From Candidatus Enterosoma merdigallinarum (GTDB lineage: Bacteria > Bacillota_I > Bacilli_A > RFN20 > CAG-288): DNA of 64,000 bases. Where the stretch lies: positions 20,730-84,729 of the forward strand of contig DVNL01000008.1 in NCBI GenBank assembly GCA_018714385.1. The letters run 5' to 3'. The translations under genes and the position numbers were made by a program. The notes under the pieces are model-generated. The model was not told where the DNA came from and ran no database searches. It saw only the letters and a list, made by a program, of their open reading frames with translations. Of this stretch, positions 10,401 through 64,000 are shown in pieces; within the stretch, counting starts at the first letter, position 1, and the number at the start of each line of letters is the position of its first letter.

Positions 10401-10518
10401 GTGGTATGAAGCGGCCTTGATCGCCCTCATCGCCGTCAGCGCCGTCGGCATGGTCGGTTCCATCGGTCTCATCGGCTACTCGACTATCGATTCCCTCAGA
10501 AAGAAGGAGGAAAACTAA
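7492..10518 (+). CDS. membrane-anchored glycoside hydrolase family 3-like protein (catalytic barrel near the C-terminus; N- and C-terminal TM segments)
   Basis: 1008 aa. It has an N-terminal signal anchor. KHFFLNDQETNR and GNVTTDFG, the GH3 substrate-binding and nucleophile-region motifs, lie at about residues 800-890. There is an Fn3-like stretch, VSVTNMGDVAGKHTVELY. The C-terminus is a hydrophobic anchor, LIALIAVSAVGMVGSIGLIGY. It is a paralogue of 43507-46674. Confidence 0.8.
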   Translation: MIKDILKNQKIWRPVASVCLLVNILAIAGNAVTQEWSGYINKFLNIQGTAIVDDDNADKDTTYFKSDFSSYTDVRDNARNIAQQVQDEGTVLMTNKENALPLAKKSKVTFFSYSTVDIAYGGTGSGGVTASEEREIDLPKACAADGRLEMNQQMYNFYKGKLDEGYQASNGQITRKSGGGWGPSATPVSFQVPEINASEFTNDLKESFNDYSDAAIFVLTRIGGEGNDLITTSATPDADKYLALTEDEKSVLQAMKEGPFKKRIVLVNTFNTPELGWLDEYDIDACLYIGGPGECGLDSVVDILVGNVNPSGKLADTYAYDTFSSPAMQNYGDFTFANADSIANADSQKYLMYNEGIYVGYRYYETRYEDSVLGRGNASSTTGTFASDSGWDYAEEVQFPFGHGLSYTTFEESITGFEVDAKNKSATMTVSVTNMGDVAGKHTVELYGQAPYKAGGIEKAAVQLIGFGKTESLAPDQSGTVELEIDLSDLASYDYKGAKTYVMEDGTYYFALGESAHDALNNILDMKGKTVSDGMDAEGDSSLVREWNKSGDEADYSLSATLNEITNQFETADINYYGEGKDIVTYLSRNDWQGTWPKNMAGYTAPAKMIADMDALYSPTNNPSAYQPSDKDTSSITTGSTATQYNIAMMRGRDYDDENWDVLLDQISIQEMADFNKQGRSAIKSIGLPETTAVDGPAAWTKSHYKEKYDDYSENAKVTEEAMVLYPTETVIAGTWNVDLTHKLGVSFGEEGLWGGGVGWYGPAANIHRTPYSGRNFEYYSEDGFISGKLAEAETKGAMEKGVIPYLKHFFLNDQETNRIGVCTFSNEQAIREVYLRAFQDAFETTGEDDKACTGVMGAFNRLGVTWTGHYSNLWKNVMAKEWGFTGNVTTDFGQKPQSLMDPLLAYDAGTTMFCTSGSSFSEIVAPRASTDLKLLTNMREATHRILYNFSNSLAMNGLSSTSRIVDITTWYEAALIALIAVSAVGMVGSIGLIGYSTIDSLRKKEEN

Positions 10519-32816: not shown

Positions 32817-34553
32817 TCATGCTAGGTTTTTCTTCAGTTCGTCCAGCTCGTCTTCATCGATCTCTTCGGGACGGGAGGAAGGCTGTCCGAGCGAGCTTGC
32901 CTGGAAGAGGCTGCCCCCATAGTGGGCGCATAGCTCGATCTGACTGTTGTTCTGGAGATCGCAATAGAGGATCGGGATGGAAAGAGGCTTGTAGTCCGAT
33001 TCGATCAGCTGGAAGGTCGCCAGCGCCGAGGCGTCGCCCATCCTTCCCGTGAATTCCTTGCCGACGACGACATAGGAGAAGAGGCGGAGAAGACGGTTCG
33101 GAAGGAGGGAGGTGGCATTGGCGATGCGGATGGCAAGAGAGAATCCCCTCTTCTTGAGCTCGCCGAGCTTGTCGATCATCTGCTTGAGGTTTGGAAGGGA
33201 CGGGAGCAGGTCGCTCTCCCTCAGGCAGAGGACCAAGTCGTAATGGCGGGCATCGTTGTGTCCGAGGGCCTTGACCAGACCGTCGAGAGAGGAGTAGATG
33301 ACGGGAAGCAACAGGCTGATGCGGTCTTTTCTTTCCGCTAGGATGGCATCGAGCCTCTTGGCGATCGAGGAGACGATGGCTTCGCTCCCACCCCGGATCG
33401 ATTCGGCGATGCGCAAGATCTCGGAAAAGTCGCGAATGGATGTGCCGTATGAGAGGACTTCCAATAGATAGAGAGAACGTTGGAAGGAGCGGATGTCCAG
33501 GGAAGGGAGGAAGAAGAGACGGAACGTCTCGTTTCGGATGAACATCTGTATCTCTTCCTTGTCCGTCTTTCGCTTCCTTTCTTTCTGGAAGAAATCCTGG
33601 TCATAGAAGAGGATGTCGTTCGGGAAGTCGCCCTTCTTGATGGCTTCGCACATCAGTTGGCACTGTTCCTTCGCCTTTTTGTAGTCCTTCTGGAAGAAGG
33701 TCCCCGTGGAGAGGCCGATGGCGAAGCGGACTTTCGTGTCCGGCCGGGAACGGTTGATCTCCTGGCGAATCTTCGTCTCCAGAGTGTCGGCAAACTGCAT
33801 GCACATCGCCTTGGACATGTTCAGAGTGGACATGAGGAAGAAGTCGTTGTCGCTGAAGGCGAGAAGGCGCCTCTCCTTCCCAAGATAGCCGCCGAGCATG
33901 TCGAGGGTGAGCCGGCTCAGTTCCATCAATTCCCGGTAGCTGTCCGTTCCCTTGTTCTTCTCGTCGACATAGAGAGAGATGAAGTAGCACGAGGCCATGC
34001 TGTTGGGGTCGCTGGCAGCCAGGAAGCTTTCCGCCTCTTCGGGAGAAGTGAACATATATTTCGCCCGGCGTCTCTTGCTGGCATTCTGTCCAAAGGCGGT
34101 GAAGGGCAACAAATGGCTTTCGAAATGGATGAGACACTTTTCACGGTTGATTCCGGTCAGCTCCAGGATGGAAGGTATCGCCTTTCCTTTGATGTGAATC
34201 TTGACGTCCGCCTGGATGAAATCCCGTCTGTTTTTCCCGGATATGATGTCGTCGAGCCAGTTTCTCACTTGATAGGAGTCGCTCGTCTGGAACTGGGAGA
34301 CGAATTCCTTTTCGGAGAGTTCCTTGCGACGCAGAAGATTGTTCCGGTCGAAGAAAAAGAATGTCTTTTTGCCGTAGTCATAGGTGTAGATCCGGATGTT
34401 GCTGTCGTTTATCTTTCTATGTCGATGGAAGAGGACCGTCGCAAAAAGAAGGATCGCGATCGCCAAAAGGAAGGCGAGAATCAGCAGGGCGATCATCCAT
34501 CCGCCATAGAACCATCCGGGGGAGTTTATCAAGGCAAACAAAACGTTGTTCAT
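32817..34553 (-). CDS. membrane-anchored hypothetical protein with possible degenerate EAL-like C-terminal region
   Basis: N-terminal TM, 578 aa. The C-terminal ELCAHYGGSLFQ weakly resembles the end of EAL domains, and no catalytic motifs are intact. Confidence 0.5.
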   Translation of the reverse strand: MNNVLFALINSPGWFYGGWMIALLILAFLLAIAILLFATVLFHRHRKINDSNIRIYTYDYGKKTFFFFDRNNLLRRKELSEKEFVSQFQTSDSYQVRNWLDDIISGKNRRDFIQADVKIHIKGKAIPSILELTGINREKCLIHFESHLLPFTAFGQNASKRRRAKYMFTSPEEAESFLAASDPNSMASCYFISLYVDEKNKGTDSYRELMELSRLTLDMLGGYLGKERRLLAFSDNDFFLMSTLNMSKAMCMQFADTLETKIRQEINRSRPDTKVRFAIGLSTGTFFQKDYKKAKEQCQLMCEAIKKGDFPNDILFYDQDFFQKERKRKTDKEEIQMFIRNETFRLFFLPSLDIRSFQRSLYLLEVLSYGTSIRDFSEILRIAESIRGGSEAIVSSIAKRLDAILAERKDRISLLLPVIYSSLDGLVKALGHNDARHYDLVLCLRESDLLPSLPNLKQMIDKLGELKKRGFSLAIRIANATSLLPNRLLRLFSYVVVGKEFTGRMGDASALATFQLIESDYKPLSIPILYCDLQNNSQIELCAHYGGSLFQASSLGQPSSRPEEIDEDELDELKKNLA

Positions 34554-34966: not shown

Positions 34967-35042
34967 GCCTACTTAGCTCAGTTGGTAGAGCAACCGGCTG
35001 TTAACCGGTAGGTCGTAGGTCCGAGTCCTACAGTAGGCGCCA
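34967..35042 (+). tRNA. tRNA-Asn (GTT)
   Basis: GCCTACT/AGTAGGC acceptor stem, GTTCGAATC-like T-loop, anticodon loop CUGUUAA, and an encoded CCA. Confidence 0.85.
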
Positions 35043-35054
35043 TCTCCGTTTTCA

Positions 35055-35130
35055 GGCCTGGTGGAGAAGCGGTTAACTCACATCCCTTTCAAGGATGCAT
35101 TCACGGGTTCAAACCCCGTCCAGGTCACCA
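35055..35130 (+). tRNA. tRNA-Glu (TTC) (anticodon assignment tentative)
   Basis: GGCCUGG/CCAGGUC acceptor, T-arm ACGGGUUCAAACCCCGU, anticodon loop CUUUCAA, and an encoded CCA. Confidence 0.7.
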
Positions 35131-35368
35131 CATTTGACAAAAACCTATAATGTTTAAACATTATAGGTTATTTTTTTACCAAATCTTACCGATTTGTGCT
35201 CGTTATGTCGTATTTTAAAGTCTTGGGGGCCCATCTCAAGCACCAAAATCAGTCAAAAATACCGCTAAAATTTCGAACCACCGCAATAGCACTTCGGGTT
35301 CGAACATTCGCAAACACAATAAAAGCCTCCCATGGCATAGGGTCAAACTATATCGAGAGAGGCTCTTT

Positions 35369-36500
35369 TTATTTGCTGATGTAAATTCCGAAGTTGCACG
35401 TGAACCAAGTGCATCTAATCTTATATCTATAGGTTTCTATGAACTTCATGGTTATGGATTGCGGGTTGTAGGGGAGATTGTCCAAATTATCTGAACCGAC
35501 CACGAATATTAGCCTGTCTCTATTGATGACTATCATTTTCTTGAACAATTTCCTGAAATCGTAGTCGCCAATCTTATCAGTTGCAGGAAATTTATGCAGT
35601 TCCTTGATGATCTCGTGCACCCTCGTTTCGGGATTTGCCTCGATCAGCCATTCGTTTTCCAACACCGCCTTTTCATCAGAAAGCTCGTTTATGTTCTTCC
35701 TTAGATATTCCTTGATGGCGTCGAATGCATCTCCGGAAAGCCCATCGTATTGAAGGAGTTTGTCTCGTTGTTCACCAAGTTCTTTGGTTAAGGCATCTAT
35801 CCTTTCCTTTTTCTCTATGAGGCTCTTGTCACTGAACGCATCCAATAGTTCCTTCTTGAACTCGTTTTCGTTAGCGAGCAGCTTCTTCACCATCGATAGG
35901 ATTATCTCGTCTAGGTGTTTTACGAACACGGACTCGCTTTCCTTGCTCGTGGAGCAGTAGAGGGCCTCGTTTCCGTGGTTTCATTTCCTGAAGTATGGGC
36001 TCCTGCAGTAAGGGCAATATCCGAAGGCTGTATAGGAGTTGGTATGGTTGTAGGTGTTCCTTCACGTAATGTTATATTTCTCGGCGAGGCTCTTCATCAT
36101 TTCCTGCGCCCCATGTAGACCTGCTTGCTTACAATAGGTGTCGATTATCACCTTGTCTAACTTCCCGTCGTTGTTATGCCTTTTCTGAGTCAATGCGTTT
36201 TCGGTATAGGTCTTTTGGAGTATCACCATCCCGCAGTATTTCTCGTTTCTAAGTATCTGCCTGATGCTTTGCCCTGACCAACGAGACAATCCGGTTTGTG
36301 TAAGGATGTGGTTTTCCTCTAGGTAGTCGCTTATCTCACCGGTGTTCTTGCCGGCAAGGTGCATTATGAAGATGTCCTTCACGTATTTGGCCTCGCATTC
36401 CTCGATCACGATGTTCCTATCCTTGTCGAACTTGTACCCGAATAGCTGGTTGGCGTTTATGAAGAATTTGCCGTCTCTTATCCTTTTCTGGCAGGTGAAT
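35369..36500 (-). pseudogene. large serine recombinase remnant (frameshifted; catalytic N-terminal domain missing)
   Basis: Three reading-frame pieces are present: a recombinase domain and a zinc-ribbon/coiled-coil C-terminal domain (ILRNEKYCGMV...; LANENEFKKELLDAFSDK...). They lie immediately 3' of tRNA-Glu. Confidence 0.6.
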
Positions 36501-36682
36501 TTGTGTTTTAAGCCTAAGAAAAGAGGTCAGTTTAAAGAAGAGAATAACTTGTTTTAGAGCAAAAAATGCCTTTCAAGGCAAAGAATTGCACTACGCTAAA
36601 AATTATTATAGAAAAACTGTCACGTTTCCAATTGCACAGTAAAAATAAATATTGGGTATCGTATAATAGTTATAAAGTTAGT

Positions 36683-37231
36683 ATGAAAAGGATAATTTTG
36701 CTTTTTAAATCAATCCTCTGTTTGACCGTTCTCAGTTCTTGTGCCGTGTCTGAAGACGACAATAGCTCGACACGTGGCGGAAAAGAATTCACCGGCCCGT
36801 TAATTTCGGGAATCTATGAATTCGATTCGTATGCTGAACTCGAGTCCTTTTATGAAGTCTATAGAATTAAAAATACCGAAGAGTTTCTGGTTCTTAATCT
36901 TGATAGTCTCGAGCATGATGTCGAGTATTATTTCGTTTCTGGCGGTGTAAACAGCCACGTTATTCATGAGAAAACATATGACTATGATTTTCCGAATCCT
37001 TCCTTCGTGATTTCAATTGACGGTATGTCTCTCTATCTTTTTGATATATCCCAAGTCGATCGGCCGGATGACCCGAATCACTTTGTTCAAGCGGATGAAA
37101 GCGATGATTATCGATATCATTTTTATATAGATGAATTTGAAGTCGGGATGCTGCAATCTGAAAACATGGTGGAAGCGGATTTGATTGACTATTTAGATAA
37201 TGAATTTATTAAGGCTTTCGACAACATTTAG
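36683..37231 (+). CDS. small lipoprotein, unknown function (island)
   Basis: Signal peptide plus lipobox LSSC, about 42% GC, and a TATAAT upstream. Confidence 0.55.
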   Translation: MKRIILLFKSILCLTVLSSCAVSEDDNSSTRGGKEFTGPLISGIYEFDSYAELESFYEVYRIKNTEEFLVLNLDSLEHDVEYYFVSGGVNSHVIHEKTYDYDFPNPSFVISIDGMSLYLFDISQVDRPDDPNHFVQADESDDYRYHFYIDEFEVGMLQSENMVEADLIDYLDNEFIKAFDNI

Positions 37232-37500
37232 TATTTACGAAATTTTTTCACTTAGCGTCTCTAATATACTTGCTGAAATTTTAATTAAGAGGACAATAAA
37301 ATATCTGCTTTGATCTAAATTGTTGCGCGACTCGATTATAGAGATAGGGCTAATCGCTTCAGAGATAGTTATTGTTTTGCCAATTCAATTGAAAACTATG
37401 AACGAGACGTAAAAGGGACTTGCATGCGACTGGCTCGAGCCCGATTTGACACATACTGAAACGATAACTTAATATGATCCTCAAAGTGGGGGCACAACGT

Positions 37501-38034
37501 ATGGGACTCAAAAATAGGCTGATTTCTACGTCAATGCTACTATTGTGTTCATGCTGTTTTGCCTCATGCACTGCGAAACAGAATCTCCAAACCGTCTCTT
37601 TCGATGTGTCCCGCGATATTTCTAGCATTTCCAATGACGACTATAAGCCATCTGTACATGTATTTGAAAACAGAGAGGAACTGGTCGATTTTGCCAGCGT
37701 CTACCCGTATGATCCGGGAGAGGATTTTTATGCTGATATTGAACATTTTGAGACAAAATTCGGATTTGCCAATCATTTAATCGTGTATTTTGGACAAATG
37801 CTGAATGTAGCGACTTCCGTTAAGGCTTATATTGACGAAACAGAAAATGAAAAAATAGTCATTACATTTGAATACGATGTGCCGGAGTCGGATACGTATC
37901 TTCCCGCTGACTCTTATTTCGATGAATTTTACCTGGTGGAAAAAGGTGATCTCGGTGGCCAAAGAAAGACGGTAACAATCAAGATTGGAAACAAAGTCGT
38001 TTATACCGAGAGTTTCGACGAGAATATTTTGTGA
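37501..38034 (+). CDS. small lipoprotein, unknown function (island)
   Basis: Signal peptide with a C-rich lipobox region LLCSCCFASC. AT-rich. Confidence 0.5.
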   Translation: MGLKNRLISTSMLLLCSCCFASCTAKQNLQTVSFDVSRDISSISNDDYKPSVHVFENREELVDFASVYPYDPGEDFYADIEHFETKFGFANHLIVYFGQMLNVATSVKAYIDETENEKIVITFEYDVPESDTYLPADSYFDEFYLVEKGDLGGQRKTVTIKIGNKVVYTESFDENIL

Positions 38035-38164
38035 TTTTAGGATATTGGCAACAATGCTTCAATCTTTCCCGCTTAGCTGCATGGCGTCAAAACTTGGCTA
38101 TACCGCTTATTTTTATGTAGAATAATAAAAATATTGTTAATAAGTATTAGGGGAGGAAGAGGCG

Positions 38165-38710
38165 ATGAGAAACGGAAAATGCGGAGTGAAATTGTCCATG
38201 GCATTTTTGGCTATGCTGTTTGGCTGCCGTGGAGAAATGCCGCTGGACTTTGTTCCCGAACGCGTCTATGGCCTCTATACAGCCCCTCTTCATGTCATGG
38301 ATGGATTGGGGTACTCCCCCTACAAAGACAAGCGAATCTTTAATTCTATCGAGGAAGTCGAGACCTTCTTCCTGGATGAATCTCGTTTCAGCGTCGGCTG
38401 GTCTCGTCCGGAAGTCTTTGATGTCATCGCTTCGGAAGTGGATTTCTCGAGCGTTTCTCTTCTTGCCTTTGTACAGGAGGAGGGGACGGGATCGTATGTC
38501 CACTATGTCCAAAAGGAGGGGAATGTGATCACCGTCCATGCTTTCTGCGGCGAGGTCGTGACGAACGATATCGCCTGCGACTATTTGATGATCGCCGTCG
38601 AGAAAGACGCCGAAGCGGAAGAATTCGATGTGTCTTACTGCTACCAAGTCCTTGACGAAGCGGAAAGGGCTGAGCTTCATAACGCCTATCCGGATACGTT
38701 CCGTTTCTAG
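38165..38710 (+). CDS. small lipoprotein, unknown function (island)
   Basis: Strong SD GGGGAGGAAGAGG and lipobox LFGC. Confidence 0.55.
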   Translation: MRNGKCGVKLSMAFLAMLFGCRGEMPLDFVPERVYGLYTAPLHVMDGLGYSPYKDKRIFNSIEEVETFFLDESRFSVGWSRPEVFDVIASEVDFSSVSLLAFVQEEGTGSYVHYVQKEGNVITVHAFCGEVVTNDIACDYLMIAVEKDAEAEEFDVSYCYQVLDEAERAELHNAYPDTFRF

Positions 38711-38720
38711 AGAACGTTCG

Positions 38721-39215
38721 ATGACAGAAATGAAAGTCATGGATCGGGACTGCCTTCTTAGAGAATTGGATCCGATTGAAGACTTGGAAGAGGCGGCTGA
38801 CCTTTTTGACAAGGCCTTTTCAAGAGAGCCATGGAATGACGACTGGCATGATCGTTCCCTCCTCTTGACTTATCTTCGAGAGCTCCTCGACGAAAACAAT
38901 GCTTTGGCATATGGCCTGTTCAGGGAGGAGAGGCTCATCGGGCTTTGCCTGGGGAGGAAAGTGCATTTCTATCAAGGCATCCAATTCCGCATCGACGAGA
39001 TCTGCATCGATCCTTCCTTGCAAGGGAAGGGATATGGAAGCCTCCTTCTTTCCAAGGTGGAGAAAGCCTGCCGCAAGGAAGGGATCTCCTATCTTCTACT
39101 CGTGACGGAAAGGGACTATCCGGCTTATTCCTTTTATCGGAAGAATGGCTTTGATCCGTTGGAGAAGAGCGTCACGCTGTGCAAGAAGATCAAAGACGAA
39201 GAAGAAAGCGCTTAA
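38721..39215 (+). CDS. GNAT-family N-acetyltransferase
   Basis: Motif A QGKGYGSLLL plus motif B. Confidence 0.75.
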   Translation: MTEMKVMDRDCLLRELDPIEDLEEAADLFDKAFSREPWNDDWHDRSLLLTYLRELLDENNALAYGLFREERLIGLCLGRKVHFYQGIQFRIDEICIDPSLQGKGYGSLLLSKVEKACRKEGISYLLLVTERDYPAYSFYRKNGFDPLEKSVTLCKKIKDEEESA

Positions 39216-50691: not shown

Positions 50692-50964
50692 GGGAAATCT
50701 CCTTGTCTGTCCCTATTTTATGCGCAAAGTTGAACAAAGAAAACAAAAATTGATCATTGTTCTTTCCAAACGAGCGGAAACGAGCATAGGATTTTCGACA
50801 AAGAAAAAGGGGGGCAGGCGGCATGAAAGAGTTTACAAAAATGCCATCGTTGCAGGGATTATGGCAATTCAGGAAAGGCAGTGGACAGAGGGCTTATCGA
50901 GAAACTAAAATACTATGTAACCGCTTTTAGGCGGGAAACAACATCAAGGAAAGGAGGAATTGAC

Positions 50965-52989
50965 ATGGCTGAAGCAGAACAGCAGCAACAGAAGAAAAGC
51001 CTGTTCGACAACCCGTTGTTGTCCACCAAAGTCAAATCCGCAAAAGTGAAGATCTTCCCCGAAGGTGGCCTCGGCTACTTCATCGGGCCCACCCTCGCCC
51101 TTCTCTCCAATTCGATTCTCAGCTCCTACCTCAACCGCTACATGACCGATGTCCTCGGCCTGACGGGCACCTATCTCACCTTGCTCCCGGTCATCTCCGT
51201 CATCTTCGTCGTCCTGGGCAACATCCTGGTCGGCCGCTTGATGGACCACAGCCGGACGAGGGCCGGAAAGGCAAGACCGCTCATCCTTCTTTCCATTCCC
51301 CTTTCGATTCTCGCTCTTCTGTTCCTCTTCATCTTCACCCCGGTAGCATTCAAGGATAATCCGGCACATCCCGGTCTGACGGTGGGCGATCCTTCAATAG
51401 CGACGTTGGCTCTATTCGCTGTCGGCTATAACCTCTGGTTCGCCGTCGCCTATCCGTTCTACTTCACGAACCATTCTGCCCTGATCAACCTTTCCACCCG
51501 AAACTCCAAGGACAGATCGCTCCTCGCCACCATCTCCAACGCCACCGCCCTCGCCGCCATGGGTCTCACCTCCATGGTCCTTCCCTTCTTCGTCGGCCTT
51601 CTCTTCAACGAGACCAAGTTCGACAAGGTGACCGGGGCAGAGCTCGCTGCCGATGCGACGGGCGAAAACGTCATCTCGATCGTCAATGCCGAGCCTTCCT
51701 TCAATGCCTGGCGTATCTTCATCATCGCTTTGATCGTCATCACGGTCATCGGCTGCCTTGTCGAATACTATTTCACCCGTGAGAGAATCACGGAGGAATC
51801 CTTCTCCCTGAAGAAGGAAGAGGCGGCAAACGAACCCGCCAAGAAGGCCCTTCCTGTCAAGGAGCAGTTCAACATCTGCGCCAAGGACAAGTTCTGGTGG
51901 ATCATGATGGGCTTCTTCTTCCTCTATCAGCTCGGCGGCATGCTCAAGAACGTCTCTCAAACCTATTATTGCCAGTCTTGGTTTGCCATCGACGGTGTCT
52001 ACTCCTCCACTAACGGCGGAACCTTCCAGGGCACCCTCTCCATCATCGGCGCCATCCCGACGGCCCTTGGCATGGTCATCGTCTGGCCTTTGGCCAATAA
52101 GATCGGCAAGGGGACTTCCATCTTCTTCGGTGCGATCTTGGCCGTCATCGGCGGCGCCATCGGTTTCATCGCCCCGGACAACTTCGCCGTCGTCACCACG
52201 TCCTTCGTCCTCAAGGCCTTGGGTTCCACCCCGGCCATGTATATCTCTCTCGCCCTCCTTGCCGACGTCCTCGACCATCAGGAGGCGCTCAACGGAGCCA
52301 GGACAGACGGTCTGACGATGACGATCTACGGCGCCATCATGGCCGGCATGACCGGCATTGCAAACGGCATCCTCAATGCCGCCCTCACTGCCACCAACTA
52401 CTCCGTCGACAACCTCACCGACCCCGCACTCCGCTCCGCCCTCCTCTGGATCTTCATCGGCGGAGAAACCCTCTGCTATGTCGGCATCTTCATCCTCTTC
52501 TTCTTCATGAAAGTCGAGAAGTACTCCGACCTCGACCACAAGGCGATCGAGGATGACCAGCGTTCTCTCGCCATGGCCAAGGGCGAGGAATACATCCCCG
52601 CTCAGGTCCGTCTCGAGATGGAGGAAGAGCAGTCCAACAAGGATGCCTGGGAAGCCGAGAAGGCTGAGCTGAAGAACCGCTGCGAGAAGAAGAACCTCAA
52701 CTACGAAGAGGAACTGAAGAAGCTCGAGGAGGACAAGGCGGCCAAGGAACAGCTTGCCGCGGCAAAGAAGCAGGAGAACGAAGAAAAGAAGGCTGCCGCC
52801 AAGAAGGCCAAGGACGATGCCTTCAAGGCCAAGCTCGATGCCATGAGCGCCGAAGAAAGGGCGGCCTACGACGAGAAGCAGAAGATCAAGGAAGAGAAGC
52901 ATGCCGCCTACCTGGAGAAGGTCGCAGGCGACTTCGCAAACCTCCGTCAGGCTCATGCCGAAGAGCGCGAGAAGTATCTCGCCTATTAA
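50965..52989 (+). CDS. GPH-family (MelB-like) glycoside:cation symporter with about 170-aa charged coiled-coil C-terminal extension
   Basis: AAGGAGG SD. Twelve TM MFS_2 core of about 500 aa, then a K/E/A-rich low-complexity tail. Confidence 0.75.
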   Translation: MAEAEQQQQKKSLFDNPLLSTKVKSAKVKIFPEGGLGYFIGPTLALLSNSILSSYLNRYMTDVLGLTGTYLTLLPVISVIFVVLGNILVGRLMDHSRTRAGKARPLILLSIPLSILALLFLFIFTPVAFKDNPAHPGLTVGDPSIATLALFAVGYNLWFAVAYPFYFTNHSALINLSTRNSKDRSLLATISNATALAAMGLTSMVLPFFVGLLFNETKFDKVTGAELAADATGENVISIVNAEPSFNAWRIFIIALIVITVIGCLVEYYFTRERITEESFSLKKEEAANEPAKKALPVKEQFNICAKDKFWWIMMGFFFLYQLGGMLKNVSQTYYCQSWFAIDGVYSSTNGGTFQGTLSIIGAIPTALGMVIVWPLANKIGKGTSIFFGAILAVIGGAIGFIAPDNFAVVTTSFVLKALGSTPAMYISLALLADVLDHQEALNGARTDGLTMTIYGAIMAGMTGIANGILNAALTATNYSVDNLTDPALRSALLWIFIGGETLCYVGIFILFFFMKVEKYSDLDHKAIEDDQRSLAMAKGEEYIPAQVRLEMEEEQSNKDAWEAEKAELKNRCEKKNLNYEEELKKLEEDKAAKEQLAAAKKQENEEKKAAAKKAKDDAFKAKLDAMSAEERAAYDEKQKIKEEKHAAYLEKVAGDFANLRQAHAEEREKYLAY

Positions 52990-56860: not shown

Positions 56861-56890
56861 TTGACAAATTTTGATTAGGAACCCTAAAAT
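56861..56890 (+). promoter_or_regulatory. sigma-70-type promoter (TTGACA-18-TAAAAT)
   Basis: Consensus -35 and near-consensus -10 elements about 80 nt upstream of the first gene of the SipW cluster. Confidence 0.5.
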
Positions 56891-56930: not shown

Positions 56931-56971
56931 CGCGGTGTTTCAGAAAGGGTTTTAGGTTAGGAGGTCATTTT

Positions 56972-57754
56972 ATGTCCAGAAAACATGCAGCGCTCGTCTT
57001 CGTTCCGCTCCTTTCGGGTGCGGCGATCATCGGCGCCGGCTTCTCCACGTGGTACTTCACGCAGAGCAGCGAAGTCATCACCAACCAGTTCTCCGCCCAG
57101 ATCGAGGCGGCCCGTCTTCCCGGCGGCGTCTTCACCTTTGCCTCCGAGACGACGATCAACTTCGACCAGAACGAGATTTCCTATTTCGGCACGACCGATG
57201 CCTTCGTCGGCTTTGGCTATGTCCAGCATGCCGCGGCGGAGGAAATCCAAGTCGAGTTCTCCCAGGACAAGGAAGGAAACAAGGCAGGTGTCGTCGCCGA
57301 ATGGGGATATGTGAACGATACCGGTGACTACAAACCGGCCAACGATATCGCCACTTACCTCCAGACTCTCGATCTTGGAACGCCCGATGTCGGCTACTAC
57401 ACCATCGAGGATACGGAGTCGGAGAGCAAATCGCTTGTCTACGAGGTCTACTATGTCGTCTTCACAAACGGGAACAACCATGCGACTGAGCTTCTCGATG
57501 CTTTCAAGACCGCTCTTGCTGCTGCCCAGTTCCAGGATGTCGAAGGCAATGAGATGACCCTTCGTGCTGCTGCCGAGCTTCCTGAAAGAAACACTCTCAC
57601 CATCAACGACCTTCCTCTTCCTTCCTATGCGGGTACTTTCGACAGGACCGACTATACTGCCTATTCTGCATTCCGTGAAAAGGTCGAGAAGAAGCTGACG
57701 CTTCGCTTCTCGACGTATGCCATCACGACCAATCCGACCGAAACAAACAACTGA
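56972..57754 (+). CDS. secreted protein with SipW-cognate-type signal peptide (member A)
   Basis: AGGAGG SD. N-terminus MSRKHAALVFVPLLSGAAIIGAGFSTWYF shares its motif with four downstream proteins. Confidence 0.6.
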   Translation: MSRKHAALVFVPLLSGAAIIGAGFSTWYFTQSSEVITNQFSAQIEAARLPGGVFTFASETTINFDQNEISYFGTTDAFVGFGYVQHAAAEEIQVEFSQDKEGNKAGVVAEWGYVNDTGDYKPANDIATYLQTLDLGTPDVGYYTIEDTESESKSLVYEVYYVVFTNGNNHATELLDAFKTALAAAQFQDVEGNEMTLRAAAELPERNTLTINDLPLPSYAGTFDRTDYTAYSAFREKVEKKLTLRFSTYAITTNPTETNN

Positions 57755-57794
57755 TCGTCCGTTTTTTCGAGAGTGACAAGGAAAGGAGGCAGGA

Positions 57795-58730
57795 ATGGAA
57801 GGCCAATCCCAGCTTTATACCGTAGCCAGCGTGATCGGCGTCATCGTCATCTTTGCCATGGCAGCCTGCTTTGCCATCCTCTTCGCCGTCTATGCCAACC
57901 AGAAGATCAAGAATCTTCGCGGCGGCCTCGACGACGAGAACCTCGGCAAGGACCTCGACAGGATGATGGGACGATATCTCGATCGCTCCTTCAACAAATA
58001 TCGCAGAAGAGCATCCCATGCGAGGGATGCCGTGGACGAGCCGGAGTTTTCCGGCCCCGACAGCAAGGTCGAGGACGGTCTCTACACATTGAGCCTCAAG
58101 GACTGCCAGAGAGGCAGCACCTTCCTGGTCCGGCTAGGCAACGTGCTCTATGCCATCTTCATCGTCGCCTGTCTCGCCTTTGCCGCCTTCGGCATCTACA
58201 TGAACACGACCGACCAGCCCATCTTCATCAACAACACGTCCTACATCGTCATCCAGACCGGATCGATGGAGGAGGCGAATCCGGACAACGAATATCTCCT
58301 AGAGAACGACCTCGACGATCAGATCAAGCAGTATTCCCTCATCGGGATCGAGCACACCGACTTCGACAAGGTCGAGCTCTACGATGTCATCGCCTTCCAC
58401 GACAGCGACGGCAACATCATCGTCCACAGGGTCGTCGGCATCCATGACGACGACGGAGAAAGGACGCTTCAGACAAGAGGCGACAGCAACAACGCCTCCA
58501 TGGATGACGAGATGGCCATCGCCAAGAAGGACTTCATCGGCACCTACGACGGCTATCAGAACTACGGCTTAGGCATCACCGTCACTTATCTGCGCTCGAC
58601 TCTCGGCATCATCGCCTTATGTGGATTCGGTCTCTTCCTGTTGGCCTATTCCATCACCGACGGCCTCATCGACAAGGCCTATCAGGAAAGGATTGGCGGC
58701 ATTGCCAAAGAGTGGGACTACAAGAAGTAG
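57795..58730 (+). CDS. sipW: signal peptidase I, SipW/Sec11-type (S26B), with extended N-terminal region
   Basis: TGSMEEANP (Ser box), IVHRVVGI (His box) and RGDSNNASMDD (GDNN box) motifs. C-terminal TM as in SipW, plus an extra N-terminal TM and about 100-aa insert. Confidence 0.7.
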   Translation: MEGQSQLYTVASVIGVIVIFAMAACFAILFAVYANQKIKNLRGGLDDENLGKDLDRMMGRYLDRSFNKYRRRASHARDAVDEPEFSGPDSKVEDGLYTLSLKDCQRGSTFLVRLGNVLYAIFIVACLAFAAFGIYMNTTDQPIFINNTSYIVIQTGSMEEANPDNEYLLENDLDDQIKQYSLIGIEHTDFDKVELYDVIAFHDSDGNIIVHRVVGIHDDDGERTLQTRGDSNNASMDDEMAIAKKDFIGTYDGYQNYGLGITVTYLRSTLGIIALCGFGLFLLAYSITDGLIDKAYQERIGGIAKEWDYKK

Positions 58731-58788
58731 GGACGAGACGAACAAAGGTTAAAATTCGGGCATGGCCCGTCAGAAAGGAAACAAGAAT

Positions 58789-59418
58789 ATGAGAAACAAG
58801 ATGCTGGGTATCCTCCTTCCCGTCCTCGCCGGAGTGGCCGTCATCGGCACGGGCTTCTCCACGTGGTATTTCGTGACCGGAGCCGATACCACCGGAGACC
58901 AAAACCTTAAGGTGCAGCTTGCTGCTGCTGCGGAGATTGGAAATTTGAGAATCACGAACAATCCTGCTCCTACGACGCTTCATCTTGATGCTTCTAATGA
59001 CACCGACACCGGCATCCATCTCGGAACGGTTTCGGAGAGCAGCGTCTTTACGCAGGCCGCGAACGATAACATCAACTGGTCTTACACTTACCAAGCCAGC
59101 ACAACGGATCTCGACAAACATCCTGTACTTACCGTCGATGTCAAAATCAACATCATTACGACATATATCGGCATCGATTTGAACGGTGAGGATCATGGCT
59201 ACACCAGCACGATTACTTCAAATAGTGCTTATCAATGGACAAAGGATGTTCGCCCTGCTTCCTATTCTGCTTCTGGCGAGAAAACGATTGAAGGTTCAAT
59301 CCCCTTCAAATTTACTTGGACAGATGAACCTACAAGCTTCTCTGAATGGAGTGCTTTGGATTCTCTTGTCGAGAACGCCACGCTGACTATCAAGCTTTCT
59401 CCGGATTGGGTTGCTTAA
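58789..59418 (+). CDS. secreted protein with SipW-cognate-type signal peptide (member B)
   Basis: N-terminus MRNKMLGILLPVLAGVAVIGTGFSTWYF. ORF-track alternative start is 58762. Confidence 0.6.
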   Translation: MRNKMLGILLPVLAGVAVIGTGFSTWYFVTGADTTGDQNLKVQLAAAAEIGNLRITNNPAPTTLHLDASNDTDTGIHLGTVSESSVFTQAANDNINWSYTYQASTTDLDKHPVLTVDVKINIITTYIGIDLNGEDHGYTSTITSNSAYQWTKDVRPASYSASGEKTIEGSIPFKFTWTDEPTSFSEWSALDSLVENATLTIKLSPDWVA

Positions 59419-59481
59419 CTTTTGACTTCTTTCCGGAAGGAGGGGGATTCCTCCTCTCTTTCCGGACACATTGAAAAGAAC

Positions 59482-60177
59482 ATGGGAAGAAACCGAATTT
59501 TAGGAATGGCCATCGCCTTGACTTCCGGTCTCGCCATCGTCGGGACTGGGTTTTCGGTGTTCTACTATGTCCAAGGTGCGGAGGCGAATGTCGGTGGCGA
59601 GGGCGGCATTCCTGTCTCGCTTGCGAAAGCCACGACGGGAACTTTCCAAATCGCCTTGGGGACAGATTCTACCCTTGTCTTTGATTCGACACGTTCGGCG
59701 GCCCACAAGAACAGGCCGGCGATTTCTTGGGAGGACAAAGAAGGCCTTGAGACCGGAATCGACGGGCATTTCCTTCATGTCCAGCTCAAGTTCGATCCGC
59801 AGGGCGGAACGAAGACGTCCATCGACTTCGTCGGTACGGTCTCTGTCAAGATCACCTTCCCTCAGGGACTTTTCGAATACGTCCTGCTGGACAAGAGCCT
59901 CACCAGCGAAATCGGAAGCGAGTGGCAAGATACCACCGATAATCCGTCGATGACTTCCACCGCGACCTATTCTTCGGACTCATCGTTGACTATCGATACC
60001 AACGGAAAATGGCTTAACGTCCCCTTCCCACTTGCCTATGATGTTGATAGTGTCAGTGGCGAGGCCACTACATGGGAACCTTCCACTGAGGAAGAATGGG
60101 AGGCGCTTCATGCCTTCAATGATGAGAAGATAACGGTTGAAGTTTCCACGCAGGAAGAAACGGGGGTGACCGCATGA
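59482..60177 (+). CDS. secreted protein with SipW-cognate-type signal peptide (member C)
   Basis: N-terminus MGRNRILGMAIALTSGLAIVGTGFSVFYY. The ORF track offers an upstream TTG (59422), but that start would include an SD-like hairpin. Confidence 0.55.
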   Translation: MGRNRILGMAIALTSGLAIVGTGFSVFYYVQGAEANVGGEGGIPVSLAKATTGTFQIALGTDSTLVFDSTRSAAHKNRPAISWEDKEGLETGIDGHFLHVQLKFDPQGGTKTSIDFVGTVSVKITFPQGLFEYVLLDKSLTSEIGSEWQDTTDNPSMTSTATYSSDSSLTIDTNGKWLNVPFPLAYDVDSVSGEATTWEPSTEEEWEALHAFNDEKITVEVSTQEETGVTA

Positions 60178-60842
60178 GGATCGACAAGATTTTGCGCATC
60201 GCCCTTCCCCTTCTTGCCGGGACGGCCCTGATCGGGACGGGGTATTCTATATTCTCCTTCGCCAACCTCAGCACGTCGGCGACTTTCGATACGAACGGTC
60301 CTGCTGTTTCCGTTTCCGGAAAGGCGGATGTCGGGACATTGGAAGTGAAGCCTGTCCAGCAGAATGTCAATATTAGTTCTAGCGGAGTCACCGTCACCTA
60401 TTCTGAATTCACGATGGCCAAGTATTTGATCATCATGCAGAACCGCGTTTATTTGAATTTCTCCCATTTTGAACTGACGTATACGCCTCCTGCCACCAGT
60501 TGGGAGGATGGAATAACGATTCCTGTCGTCATCACGGCCAAGATGGTTTTGAGCGGCAAACTGCCCGAATACTTCCATTCCAACGCCTGGACAAAGGACC
60601 AGGCCAATTCGGGAACCTATCTTTTCACAGTTGGAACGTATGATGTCAAGGAAGGTGAGCCGACTGTCGTTCATCAGATTTCTCCGACCCTTGAATACAA
60701 CGAAGGAAAAGATCCTCAGGAGATGGCGGACGTCCTCAGAATCCAAAATGATATTATTGCCGATACCAATAGCGTCGTGTCCTTCACCTTCACGGCAAGT
60801 CTGAGAAGCGATCTGCCGATTGAAGAGACGCCCGGTGCCTAG
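60174..60842 (+). CDS. secreted protein with SipW-cognate-type signal peptide (member D)
   Basis: ATGA overlap with the previous gene. N-terminus MRIDKILRIALPLLAGTALIGTGYSIFSF. Confidence 0.6.
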   Translation: MRIDKILRIALPLLAGTALIGTGYSIFSFANLSTSATFDTNGPAVSVSGKADVGTLEVKPVQQNVNISSSGVTVTYSEFTMAKYLIIMQNRVYLNFSHFELTYTPPATSWEDGITIPVVITAKMVLSGKLPEYFHSNAWTKDQANSGTYLFTVGTYDVKEGEPTVVHQISPTLEYNEGKDPQEMADVLRIQNDIIADTNSVVSFTFTASLRSDLPIEETPGA

Positions 60843-60859
60843 GAAAGGAGGATGAAGAA

Positions 60860-63139
60860 ATGCGCAAGAACAGATTCTGGTTGTCATTGAGCTTTGCCTT
60901 CGTTCTTCTCCTGACTCTCGTGGGAACGGGCTTCGGTCTCTTTTATGTCGGCGATACGGATCCTGTCTCGGTCGACAATATCGGAACGCGGGTTGACGAT
61001 ATAGAAGAGAACTATATTCTCAAGGATGCCGGTGTCGGACAGGAGAGCTATTACGACGTCTATTTCTTCTGCACGCCATATGCGGCCCAAGTGGACCCTA
61101 GCCGTTTGATTGAGTTGGCGCCTGGCACTGGTGGCAATGGATACGATAGTGCCGTGCGGTTTTACTGGTGGGATGGAGGGACGGCAGCACAGGAGTCGCA
61201 GCCATCAAAGTCAAATTATGGACAAAATGGATGGAGAAAAATACGAGTTTATCGTTCTATTTCTGCTGAACAGTTCAACAATATCGGAACTCCGGTTGCA
61301 GGAAAGGGAAATATGTCAGCGGAGAGCGGTGGCGCCACCCCCTATTGGGACTGTGACACTCAAAACGGGCAGGATAAATATTGGCCGTTGGATTTTTCTG
61401 GATGGACTGCCAATAGGCAAGCGGCAAGCAACACTATCAATTTCAATTCTGGAGCCTATAATCAAGGAAATTTTGATTATGTCGATGCTTTTTCTCCATT
61501 ATCGCAAATTGATTCTGGGAATGAAGACGGCTCAACGGCCGAAAACAACGTCATCTATTTGTATCCTATTTTTACCACCGGAAAGGATTACAGCCGCAGT
61601 GCAGATTTGGATAATACGCTTCATCAGCAACCCGCTATGCGTTTGTCTTTTTCGTATTCAAATGGCTATGAGGGCAAAGGACATTATTTTTTCTCTCAAG
61701 ATGGCGAAGATAATTCGGCAATGTATACTTACAAAAACTTGATTGTTGGCAAAGATGATCTTGGAAAGTATAGTTTTGAAGTCACACCAATGTCGTGGTC
61801 TTCTCAGTACGAACTTGGTTGGAGGGGTTGGGAAAAAACGGACACAGTATCTATGAGTGGAGCATGGGCTTCCACTGGAAATTATCAACTGGTTGATATG
61901 CCAGGAACATATAACATTTCTGTTCGGCTTTATAATCAAGCATATAATAGAAAAAATGAGGATTTGGATAGTTTTGCCTCCACTTCTTATAAGAATGCTT
62001 CTGAAAGCCCGGAGAGTGGTGTCGTTGTTAAAAAGTATGTTTTAACTAATATCGATCTCAGCGCAAGCACAAAGTCGGCGATTGAATCTGATGGATGTGA
62101 CATTATTGAAAATGGTGGAGATACTTCTGAAGCCCCCACACCATGGGAAGATGCCACCCTTAGTTTTGGTTTACCTTCAAACCATAGTGGCTATAGTGGC
62201 TTCCTTTGCTACATTCAGGTCGAACGTGTCTATGAGTTCCATCTATTAGGTGGACCTTATGGGACATTCAACTATGATGAGACTCAGTATTTCTATGAGG
62301 GCGAAATCGGTGTTACGGATACGGATGCGAAGACTAGGACGTTTGGCTTGAACAACGTGTATTTTGATGCTTCCGAAAGAACGTTCACGGATACCTATGT
62401 CGGTGTCGGAGACGAAAACCGGATCGGCATTTTCAGAAACAACGTCTTTACTATCGACTTCATGAACACGGTATGGGCGAATAATATACAGGCCTTCACC
62501 GCTGACGAGTTGGCGGCGATAAATTCGTATGCAACTAATACATATCATGAAGAAAAACCAAATTATGTCTCTATCGATGAAAACGGCATTCTTCAAAAGG
62601 CGGTCGCCAAGATAAATTCCACTGATACGGACTATGACTATGAACTTTCGAACGTCAGTAATCCCGAGGCCGTTCGAACGCTTTTGAAAATAACGGAAAC
62701 AGGTTTCTACAATTTCCGAATCCAGGTCAAGTTTAAGAGTACTGCCAGCACAACCGATCTTGAAAGCTATGTGGAATCCATCAAGATTGCTGTCTCCCCA
62801 GTCAAGAGCGATTACTTTGTGAAAATCTATCGGAACGATAGTTTCGACAGACTTTATTCCGATGCTAGCGGAAAGAATGGGTTCATCGATCATAATGATC
62901 ATAATGGGACATTGTCAGGTAGGAACGAACTTCTTTATGTCGCCAATTTCAATGAATTCGGATCTCCCTTGTCTGAAATGCGCTTCCGCTCTCCGGGCAA
63001 TGCGGACAACCCGGACGCCTGGGTTCCATATGAGGAAATTCTGAGAACTTATCCTACCATTCGTGATCACGTCACCAAAAATGCCGTCGATCCCAACATG
63101 ATCCTCGAAAAGAATTACGTGTTTTACGTTTCGAATTAA
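60860..63139 (+). CDS. large (759 aa) secreted protein with SipW-cognate-type signal peptide (member E)
   Basis: GAAAGGAGG SD. N-terminus MRKNRFWLSLSFAFVLLLTLVGTGFGLFYV. Long Asn/Tyr/Thr/Gly-rich, beta-rich-looking body. Confidence 0.6.
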   Translation: MRKNRFWLSLSFAFVLLLTLVGTGFGLFYVGDTDPVSVDNIGTRVDDIEENYILKDAGVGQESYYDVYFFCTPYAAQVDPSRLIELAPGTGGNGYDSAVRFYWWDGGTAAQESQPSKSNYGQNGWRKIRVYRSISAEQFNNIGTPVAGKGNMSAESGGATPYWDCDTQNGQDKYWPLDFSGWTANRQAASNTINFNSGAYNQGNFDYVDAFSPLSQIDSGNEDGSTAENNVIYLYPIFTTGKDYSRSADLDNTLHQQPAMRLSFSYSNGYEGKGHYFFSQDGEDNSAMYTYKNLIVGKDDLGKYSFEVTPMSWSSQYELGWRGWEKTDTVSMSGAWASTGNYQLVDMPGTYNISVRLYNQAYNRKNEDLDSFASTSYKNASESPESGVVVKKYVLTNIDLSASTKSAIESDGCDIIENGGDTSEAPTPWEDATLSFGLPSNHSGYSGFLCYIQVERVYEFHLLGGPYGTFNYDETQYFYEGEIGVTDTDAKTRTFGLNNVYFDASERTFTDTYVGVGDENRIGIFRNNVFTIDFMNTVWANNIQAFTADELAAINSYATNTYHEEKPNYVSIDENGILQKAVAKINSTDTDYDYELSNVSNPEAVRTLLKITETGFYNFRIQVKFKSTASTTDLESYVESIKIAVSPVKSDYFVKIYRNDSFDRLYSDASGKNGFIDHNDHNGTLSGRNELLYVANFNEFGSPLSEMRFRSPGNADNPDAWVPYEEILRTYPTIRDHVTKNAVDPNMILEKNYVFYVSN

Positions 63140-63150
63140 GACATTCTTGA

Positions 63151-63648
63151 ATGGAAGAAGAGAAGAATCTCGACTTTCTTATCGGTTTGTCCAGAGAGGA
63201 ATACGAGGCCGAGTTTGCGCGTTCGGATCGTCTTCAGGAAAAGAACGGCATCTTCCTCTCCTTGATGGGGACCTTGCTTTCCATCGTCCTTGTTTCTTTT
63301 CCCTATTCTGAGTTTTCAAAGACCATGGGCAATTGGTATGCCATCGCCCTCCTGATTGTCTTCCTGCTTTCCGTTGTCTGCTTTTTCATCGGTCTTCTTT
63401 TTCTCTGTTCCGCCGTTTTTTTGACTCAGACGAAACGCCTGAACCACAATGTCTTCTCAGAAAAATATGTCGTGAGGGACACGATTTCGGTCAAAAAGAA
63501 GATTCTTTCGGATATGCAGGATATCGTTCGCTTCAACAAAGAAAAGAATGACAAGATCGCAAAACGTTTTTCTCTCGGCATCCGTTTTTCGATTCCGTCT
63601 ATGATTGCCGTCTTGATTCTGTTTATTGTCATTTCTTTTGTTATTTGA
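63151..63648 (+). CDS. membrane protein, unknown function
   Basis: 165 aa with two to three TM segments, directly after the cluster. Confidence 0.45.
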   Translation: MEEEKNLDFLIGLSREEYEAEFARSDRLQEKNGIFLSLMGTLLSIVLVSFPYSEFSKTMGNWYAIALLIVFLLSVVCFFIGLLFLCSAVFLTQTKRLNHNVFSEKYVVRDTISVKKKILSDMQDIVRFNKEKNDKIAKRFSLGIRFSIPSMIAVLILFIVISFVI

Positions 63649-63676
63649 TACAAGCTTTTTAAAGGAGAAAAGGAAA

Positions 63677-63805
63677 ATGAATTGGTTTATGTCGGAAGAA
63701 TTGAATTTTGATGGTTTTGACCCTGAGCCGGAAGATTCTCCGATCGTGGTTTTAGACAAGAAAAAAGAGGAAGAGAAAGGGGAGGAAGAAAAGAAGGCGG
63801 CCTGA
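63677..63805 (+). CDS. small acidic protein (42 aa), hypothetical
   Basis: AAAGGAGAAAAGG SD 6 nt from the ATG. Product MNWFMSEELNFDGFDPEPEDSPIVVLDKKKEEEKGEEEKKAA. Confidence 0.3.
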   Translation: MNWFMSEELNFDGFDPEPEDSPIVVLDKKKEEEKGEEEKKAA

Positions 63806-63875
63806 CAAACTTTCATGTCTCGCCTATTTCCGATAGTCGATGTGATAAAATAATTGAGTTATTGGAGGTTTAACA

Positions 63876-64000
63876 TGACCAAGTTAGTTCTTATCCGTCA
63901 TGGCGAGAGCGAGTGGAACAAGCTCAACCTGTTCACCGGCTGGACGGATGTCGACCTTTCCGAGAAGGGACACGAGGAAGCGACCAATGCCGGAAAGCTC
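63876..64000 (+). CDS. gpmA: 2,3-bisphosphoglycerate-dependent phosphoglycerate mutase (N-terminal fragment; continues beyond window)
   Basis: [20 protein letters not shown] catalytic His motif. Confidence 0.8.

Follow-up and report, generated by a model that had tools for sequence, protein, structure and literature searches.

Organization of the locus

The window analysed here (the whole 64-kb stretch of DNA under study, from a contig of Candidatus Enterosoma merdigallinarum) contains six co-directional and closely packed plus-strand genes between positions 56972 and 63139. We refer to these, in order, as A, peptidase, B, C, D and E, and to the group as the cassette (Table 1). The second gene encodes a signal peptidase of the SipW/Sec11 type (S26B). 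The other five encode proteins that carry the same N-terminal motif, G-x-G-F-S-x-W-Y-F or a variant of it. On balance, the cassette is probably a self-contained unit for export and surface assembly, centred on a private signal peptidase and its cognate substrates.

The open reading frame (ORF) calls give intergenic gaps, from A to E, of 40, 31, 63, -4 and 17 nucleotides (nt). A preliminary description of this DNA placed the ORFs in the same way and with the same sizes for A, B, D and E. It gave 232 amino acids (aa) for C, which has 231, and put every gap at 40 nt or less, which does not hold for the 63-nt spacer between B and C, where a hairpin is located. It also ended the region at 63805, thereby taking in a 165-aa ORF that it did not discuss. 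For gene C we use the ATG at 59482. The start proposed by the metagenome gene caller (59506) would drop a basic N-terminal region that is kept in the orthologues.

Candidatus Enterosoma corresponds to the Genome Taxonomy Database genus UBA7642, in the order RFN20 and the family CAG-288 (PMC8035907). Reduced genomes of this type measure about 1-1.4 Mb. The host family is peptidoglycan-deficient according to a published family-level prediction, and the order RFN20 has been reported to be without srtA/B sortases and hence to have few surface-displayed proteins (PMC10868615). The 20 other genes of the window that were annotated with Pfam contain nothing that bears directly on the presence of a wall; the wall-less status referred to below is that of the published family-level prediction.

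Table 1. Coordinates of the cassette genes and associated features in the window
Feature	Position	Strand	Details
Promoter-like site TTGACA-18 nt-TAAAAT	56861-56890	+	11/12 consensus matches (scan); about 80 nt upstream of A; pattern match only
GGAGG ribosome-binding site	~56960-56964	+	Ahead of the gene A ATG; read from the sequence
Gene A	56972-57754	+	260 aa; signal motif GAGFSTWYF at nt 57032-57058
Peptidase gene	57795-58730	+	311 aa; SipW/Sec11-type (S26B)
Gene B	58762-59418	+	218 aa; signal motif GTGFSTWYF at nt 58846-58872
Stem-loop	59432-59466	+	In the B-C spacer (63 nt); 15-bp stem, 5-nt loop; -27.1 kcal/mol, z = -4.55
Gene C	59482-60177	+	231 aa; signal motif GTGFSVFYY at nt 59542-59568
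Gene D	60174-60842	+	222 aa; signal motif GTGYSIFSF at nt 60234-60260; 4-nt overlap with the end of C
Gene E	60860-63139	+	759 aa; cognate-like signal motif GTGFGLFYV at nt 60923-60949
Multi-pass membrane-protein ORF	63151-63648	+	165 aa; begins 11 nt past E; weak matches to families of unknown function

The signal peptidase

The cassette peptidase matches the NCBIfam SipW model NF046067 (E-value 3e-14; 52.9 bits against a cut-off of 190) and the archaeal-type signal peptidase I model TIGR02228 (E-value 1.5e-12; 47.6 bits against a cut-off of 51.85). The Pfam model Peptidase_S26 (PF10502) is matched at an E-value of 0.0015 and 18.9 bits, compared with a cut-off of 22.9. Since these matches are significant yet sub-threshold, sequence comparison indicates that the protein is a member of a divergent S26B subfamily and not a SipW equivalog. 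Its top sequence matches in the PDB are human SEC11C and SEC11A, with which the IVHRV and GD(S)NN boxes align.

The assignment of the second gene to the S26B peptidases was already part of the preliminary description, and it is borne out by the catalytic residues: all 18 aligned homologues, the most distant of them at 26% identity, keep Ser157 (TGSME), His211 (IVHRV) and Asp230 (RGDSNN). The last box had been read as GDNN; the sequence is GDSNN. The His and Asp residues are 19 positions apart. In 2000, Tjalsma et al. reportedly identified the catalytic Ser, the His and the GDNN-box Asp as the essential residues of SipW, where His87 and Asp106 are said to have the same 19-residue spacing.

The match to the family models begins at residue 115. 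Residues 1-114 form an extra and well-conserved membrane helix and linker, so that the unusual N-terminal transmembrane segment and insertion noticed earlier are real. In this extension F26, L29 and Y33 are invariant; a G-x-(E/D)-D box, also conserved, and a basic loop come after them. The predicted layout consists of helix 1 (about residues 8-32), the basic loop (about 33-114, some 85 residues), helix 2 (about 118-137) and helix 3 (about 271-287). From the positive-inside rule, the N-terminus would be outside, the loop cytoplasmic, the catalytic domain outside and the C-terminus inside.

The subfamily is small: clustered at 90% identity, its members in a set of 5.8 billion proteins form 50 clusters, and none of these carries a Pfam annotation. 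The protein of the window is identical to HIU70710.1, which NCBI names 'hypothetical protein', and none of the cassette homologues that were looked up has a name given by its source. In two related peptidases, P0047 and P0048, the C-terminus is extended by a long acidic tail. One database protein of 374 aa (P0005) is similar to two cassette proteins, to 82% of A with 90% identity and to the peptidase with 98% identity over 55%; this is probably a frameshift or an assembly chimera of the two adjacent genes.

Conservation of the cassette across genomes

Related loci were identified by a genome scan with a 10-sequence alignment of the peptidase, using one genome per species. This gave 30 loci. 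About 28 of these, in gut metagenome-assembled genomes of reduced-genome Bacilli, keep the same cassette: a motif-bearing small gene, the peptidase, one to five further motif-bearing small genes and finally a gene of 700-950 aa with a variant of the motif. A motif-bearing small gene is found directly upstream of the peptidase wherever the locus sequence reaches that far. The co-conservation of the peptidase with motif-bearing genes is strict and holds down to about 30% identity. Besides the host described here, carriers include Anaeroplasmataceae, 'uncultured Mollicutes', 'uncultured Bacilli' and Candidatus Caccosoma. The last of these belongs to the RFN20 family CAG-631 and is predicted to have a wall.

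The GC content of the cassette loci ranges from 25% to 59% and their flanking genes are completely different. Because the flanking genes turn over completely and GC content varies to this extent, the linkage within the cassette appears to be under selection. No conserved usher, sortase, ATPase or chaperone gene was found near the cassettes of the 30 loci.

A few loci depart from the usual order. In L023 (6475-12607) a small protein is followed by a 945-aa motif-bearing protein and then by the peptidase, whose domain is the N-terminal part of an 883-aa ORF. In L027 (395-3692) and L028 (6492-9795), which are distant cassettes, three small genes precede the peptidase, and the small proteins carry a reduced motif, ..S-I-G-F-S/A-x-W-I/F-I.

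Two other origins were considered for the cassette, a type IV pilin-like or pseudopilin system and a mobile-element or phage cassette, and we regard both as extremely improbable. The G|F junction of the motif is superficially like a prepilin cleavage site, but the hydrophobic segment lies before this junction and not after it. The type IV pilin reading is thus refuted by anatomy, and no prepilin peptidase, assembly ATPase or platform gene occurs in any cassette. A mobile origin might be suggested by base composition: E and the sequence downstream of it (60001-64000) have a GC content of 0.44-0.47, compared with 0.52-0.53 in A, the peptidase and B and about 0.55 for the window on average. The low value may be due to the many Asn, Tyr, Ser, Thr and Asp residues of E, or to a different evolutionary history. 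Against a mobile origin, relatives of the peptidase are missing from the viral contig collection, and no recombinase adjoins the cassette.

The shared N-terminal signal and motif

In all five non-peptidase proteins a short basic segment opens the sequence, a hydrophobic stretch of about 15 residues comes next, and the G-x-G-F-S-x-W-Y-F pattern follows. The motif begins at residue 21-29. That the five N-termini follow one pattern had been noted from the outset and is correct for every one of them. In 63 small proteins from related loci, the individual positions are conserved as follows: G1 in 57, G3 in 61, F4 in 59, S5 in 54, W7 in 54, Y8 in 45 and F9 in 56. The large E-type proteins carry the loosest and most degenerate version (S/G, F, G, F/L, S, Y, F, Y, F).

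A strict form of the pattern was searched for in six-frame translations of the window and of the 30 related loci with flanks of up to 10 kb per side (560 kb in total). There were 52 matches. All of them (52/52) are on the same strand as the peptidase and lie in an interval that begins 5 kb before its gene and ends 6 kb after it, and no match was found outside the cassettes. The motif is therefore far beyond chance and is not the general signal-peptide style of the genome. With all strict matches inside cassettes and none elsewhere in the sequence searched, the substrates of the peptidase appear to be private.

This result also bears on the possibility that the enzyme is simply a housekeeping signal peptidase that lies by chance among secreted proteins, the motif being the usual signal style of the lineage. 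Reduced genomes might keep a single signal peptidase I, and no LepB-type gene was seen in the annotated parts of the window. However, the strict motif is confined to the cassettes, and other exported proteins of the window (for example, the lipoproteins at 36.5-38.7 kb) carry ordinary signals. The linkage of peptidase and motif also survives the complete turnover of flanking genes. We consider a housekeeping role very improbable.

The motif is much better conserved than the mature domains, where the mean column identity is 17%. The same N-terminal module is present on three unrelated kinds of mature domain (that of A, that of B, C and D, and that of E), a distribution that one would expect if it were a portable tag for sorting or assembly.

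The mature proteins

The mature domains had been described as lacking any recognisable motif, and proteins A-E indeed match no Pfam or NCBIfam family. There is no consistent Pfam match among 23 E-type members either. We compared the mature parts after removal of signal and motif. The mature part of B groups with most of the upstream and downstream small proteins of other loci (43 sequences), and the cluster containing C and D aligns with this main cluster in hhalign (97.6% probability, E-value 2.8e-12). At the level of sequence profiles, B, C and D are thus homologous, C being a paralogue of B and D. The small-protein profile search gave at least 61 proteins, a figure that underestimates the breadth of this family.

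The five proteins had been presented as one family. This holds for B, C and D and does not extend to the other two. The A clade of the window (four sequences) shows weak similarity to the small-protein family over its last 40 or so residues (E-value 0.054). The mature domain of A is specific to an Enterosoma-like clade, and a phmmer search with A returns 16 close homologues. E shares just its first 55 or so residues (signal, motif, linker and first strand) with the small proteins. The E-type proteins have a near-invariant VDDIEENY box, at residues 45-52 in E, and this is followed by a large body that is predicted to be beta-rich and is without known relatives. Single-linkage BLAST clustering of the full-length proteins places all five in one cluster and would make them paralogues, but this is aided by the shared signal; the mature parts separate.

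The model of B suggests that its mature domain is an immunoglobulin (Ig)-like beta-sandwich. The best matches in a fold search are weak and include Gram-positive pilins, macroglobulin domains, RbmA and EcpD. In the model, the first 45 residues are disordered, with a predicted local distance difference test (pLDDT) score below 50 and no helix in the signal and motif region. Such an N-terminus is compatible with donor-strand exchange but, in a monomer model, is not diagnostic of it.

The preliminary description also labelled the N-terminal motif 'TasA/camelysin-like'. If taken literally, this would make the small proteins divergent TasA/CalY jelly-roll subunits with a TIGR04088 signal and TasA-style polymerisation. 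The order A-peptidase-B and the sizes of 260, 311 and 218 aa do recall tapA-sipW-tasA. An hhalign comparison of the small-protein profile with TasA aligns 24 signal-peptide columns (...LALVGGGT with ...IVGsGF), and the design of the signal, judged from these sequences, resembles that of TasA: the hydrophobic core passes directly into V-G-x-G, and aromatic residues surround the cleavage site. However, the alignment is limited to the signal peptide and reaches a probability of 42%. The N-termini of A-E and a consensus-type A protein give no match to TIGR04088, TIGR04089, TIGR04090 or NF046066 at E-values up to 10, and the full-length proteins give none to TIGR04090 or TIGR04089 at E-values up to 1. 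A TasA control run with the same models was positive (NF046066 at an E-value of 9e-155; TIGR04088 at 38 bits against a cut-off of 19; TIGR04090 and TIGR04089 weakly). In addition, 60 members of the small-protein family show neither a Peptidase_M73 match nor any other consistent Pfam match, and the family profile finds nothing among PDB sequences. The mature domains show no sequence or fold homology to the TasA jelly-roll. By these comparisons, the cassette proteins are outside the TIGR04088 class and the TasA, camelysin and BsaA families. Membership of the TasA/camelysin family is largely refuted, and we consider a true TasA/camelysin fibre very improbable.

Proposed mechanism

In the mechanism that we propose, the five flanking proteins would be inserted via the Sec system by means of their N-terminal signal (basic region, core of about 15 residues and G-x-G-F-S-x-W-Y-F). 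The cassette peptidase would then recognise these substrates and cut them within the motif. There are two candidate cleavage sites, G1-x-G3|F4 and G3-F4-S5|x6, both of which agree with the rule of small residues at -3 and -1. A cut at S5|x6 would place the invariant Trp/Phe at P2'. One study (PMC10269814) reports that an aromatic P2' residue makes TasA a poor substrate of LepB and dependent on SipW, and a similar effect here would explain the need for a dedicated enzyme.

Either site would leave an aromatic N-terminus on the mature protein. The conserved stub (..W-Y-F) would then come first, with a polar linker (about 10 residues) and a conserved first strand behind it. The N-terminal module is the best conserved part of these proteins, occurs on three unrelated domains and is disordered in the model of B. 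These are properties expected of an assembly tag, for example a donor strand. The putative Ig-like proteins B, C and D would most likely join A and E in a surface polymer or complex. E would be an end component, either distal and adhesin-like or membrane-proximal, and A would likewise be an end component. Assembly of this kind would involve no sortase, usher or ATPase. As the host family is predicted to be wall-less and the order is without sortases, another route of surface display is plausible.

The main rival to this proposal, at least for E, is that the proteins are not cleaved and that the N-terminal segments act as signal-anchors. The end of the motif would then be an aromatic belt at the membrane surface, and the products would be type II membrane-anchored proteins, with the peptidase shedding them in a regulated manner or processing some of them. 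The hydrophobic stretch together with the motif measures about 24 residues, which is enough to span the membrane. In the AlphaFold model of E, residues 2-31 form one continuous helix (pLDDT 68-91 over the first 30 residues), and it is in the E-type proteins that the motif is most degenerate. Signal-anchors would also suit a wall-less cell, in which the structure has to be held in place somehow: with the host family predicted to be peptidoglycan-deficient and the order without sortases, this would be the only anchoring open to it. On the other hand, a dedicated peptidase with intact catalytic residues is kept in every cassette. Small residues at motif positions 1, 3 and 5 and a helix-breaking G-x-G are typical of a cleavage region, and the corresponding region of B forms no helix in its model. 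We judge this explanation unlikely, though it has to be taken more seriously than the others.

Several points weigh against a private export and assembly unit. The peptidase is below the curated cut-offs of every family model tested (TIGR02228, NF046067 and PF10502). A hydrophobic stretch with an aromatic belt fits an uncleaved signal-anchor equally well, as the helix of E illustrates. Polymerisation is suggested by analogy with other systems. If the genome is without a second signal peptidase I, the cassette enzyme might be the housekeeping one. Finally, subunits released from a wall-less cell would need an anchor, and none was found.

With these reservations, we retain the view that the cassette is an export and surface-assembly unit. 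A more extensive version of it is possible, and we put it forward tentatively. The cassettes may represent a class of surface fibre that depends neither on a wall nor on sortases, in gut Bacilli that have reduced genomes and are often peptidoglycan-deficient (RFN20, Anaeroplasmataceae-like and related lineages). In such fibres the extended peptidase would unmask the ..W-Y-F strand, the Ig-like subunits would polymerise head-to-tail and the orphan-fold protein of 700-950 aa would serve as a tip adhesin or anchor. Their origin would be independent of TasA, BsaA and AbpA.

The B-C stem-loop and other features of the window

A hairpin had been described after B at 59437-59460. It is real but larger than this (Table 1), and none of 200 shuffled sequences folds equally well. 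The structure sequesters a GGAAGGAGG run and ends 16 nt ahead of the ATG of gene C. A similar stem is present at the same site in L002, whose peptidase is 82% identical, and no such stem is found in L003, L004 or L005. An intrinsic terminator was considered and rejected: there is no T-run, the structure is missing from the terminator scan and it is not conserved beyond L002. As a speculation, it might act on mRNA stability or on the translation of C. The earlier suggestion that it sets subunit stoichiometry is likewise a conjecture, for a stem shared with the closest relative, L002, alone.

The 165-aa ORF that follows E is unlikely to be a core member of the cassette. It is missing in the close relative L003, and no equivalent follows the E-type gene in the other loci.

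The window includes several further features. A low-GC stretch (34967-38812; 0.40-0.47 compared with about 0.55 elsewhere) follows genes for tRNA-Asn and tRNA-Glu. It includes two minus-strand ORFs (35369-35929 and 36062-36409) that give the impression, on reading by eye, of serine recombinase fragments, and three small lipoprotein-like proteins (36566-37231, 37474-38034 and 38165-38710) with an N-terminal hydrophobic stretch ending in Cys. This stretch looks like the remnant of an integrated element. A GH3 glycosidase of 1008 aa (7492-10518) has an unusual domain order, in which Glyco_hydro_3_C (residues 90-361) and an Fn3-like domain (residues 442-516) precede the Glyco_hydro_3 N-terminal domain (residues 721-893). 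An MFS_2-type transporter (50881-52989; Pfam, contig annotation) ends in a tail of about 150 aa in which Lys, Glu and Ala are very abundant and which resembles a coiled coil. A minus-strand gene (32817-34553) encodes a protein of 578 aa with an N-terminal membrane helix and no Pfam match at E-values up to 1e-5.

Significance and comparison with known systems

Operons that combine a SipW-type peptidase with its own substrates underlie the best-studied Gram-positive biofilm fibres (TasA, CalY and BsaA). The cassette appears to follow the same logic with different parts: a signal motif outside TIGR04088, a putative family of Ig-like subunits, a large orphan protein and a peptidase with an N-terminal extension. 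Should its products be surface fibres or adhesins, these would be leading candidates for the means of gut attachment of abundant and unstudied commensals, in lineages predicted to be thin-walled or wall-less. The motif also offers an easy way to find such substrates and to examine the specificity of S26B enzymes for aromatic residues just past the cleavage site. Literature searches (TIGR04088; SipW in Mollicutes or RF39) returned no description of this system.

In its layout the cassette resembles both tapA-sipW-tasA and sipW-bsaA-bsaB-bsaC. In tapA-sipW-tasA of Bacillus subtilis and sipW-tasA-calY of B. cereus, as in the cassette, a dedicated S26B peptidase adjoins its own exported substrates. 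The tapA-sipW-tasA operon also resembles the cassette in its gene order and sizes, in a special signal with V-G-x-G and aromatic residues, and in the absence of usher, sortase and ATPase. The parts nevertheless differ. The mature cassette proteins are unrelated to TasA and TapA by hidden Markov model, profile or fold search, and their motif gives no TIGR04088 match. Compared with SipW, the cassette peptidase has an extra membrane helix, a putative cytoplasmic loop of about 85 aa and some 14 more residues between the Ser and His boxes. The cassette also ends in an orphan protein of 700-950 aa, and its host is predicted to be wall-less.

The sipW-bsaA-bsaB-bsaC operon of Clostridium perfringens likewise combines a SipW-type peptidase, small matrix subunits and a large terminal protein, all with secretion signals (PMC11580942). 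A disordered N-terminal segment of BsaA has been proposed to insert into the next subunit, and the large BsaC ends the operon (PMC11580942). In contrast to bsa, the cassette proteins give no TIGR04090 match, E has no von Willebrand A or other Pfam domain, no Asn-Glu-Lys isopeptide triad is evident and there are no type IV pilus genes nearby.

Gram-positive sortase pilins (CppA, BcpA and RrgB) and the chaperone-usher subunit EcpD are also among the closest known systems. Tested as sortase pilins, the cassette proteins have no LPXTG-type sorting signal at their C-termini, and the cassettes contain no sortase gene. For the peptidase, the best catalytic-domain matches are SEC11A/SEC11C and the archaeal signal peptidase I (TIGR02228), with which it has in common the IVHRV and GD(S)NN boxes and the Ser-His-Asp chemistry. 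These are general-purpose enzymes, whereas the cassette peptidase is narrowly distributed, has gained an N-terminal helix and loop, and is always tied to motif-bearing genes.

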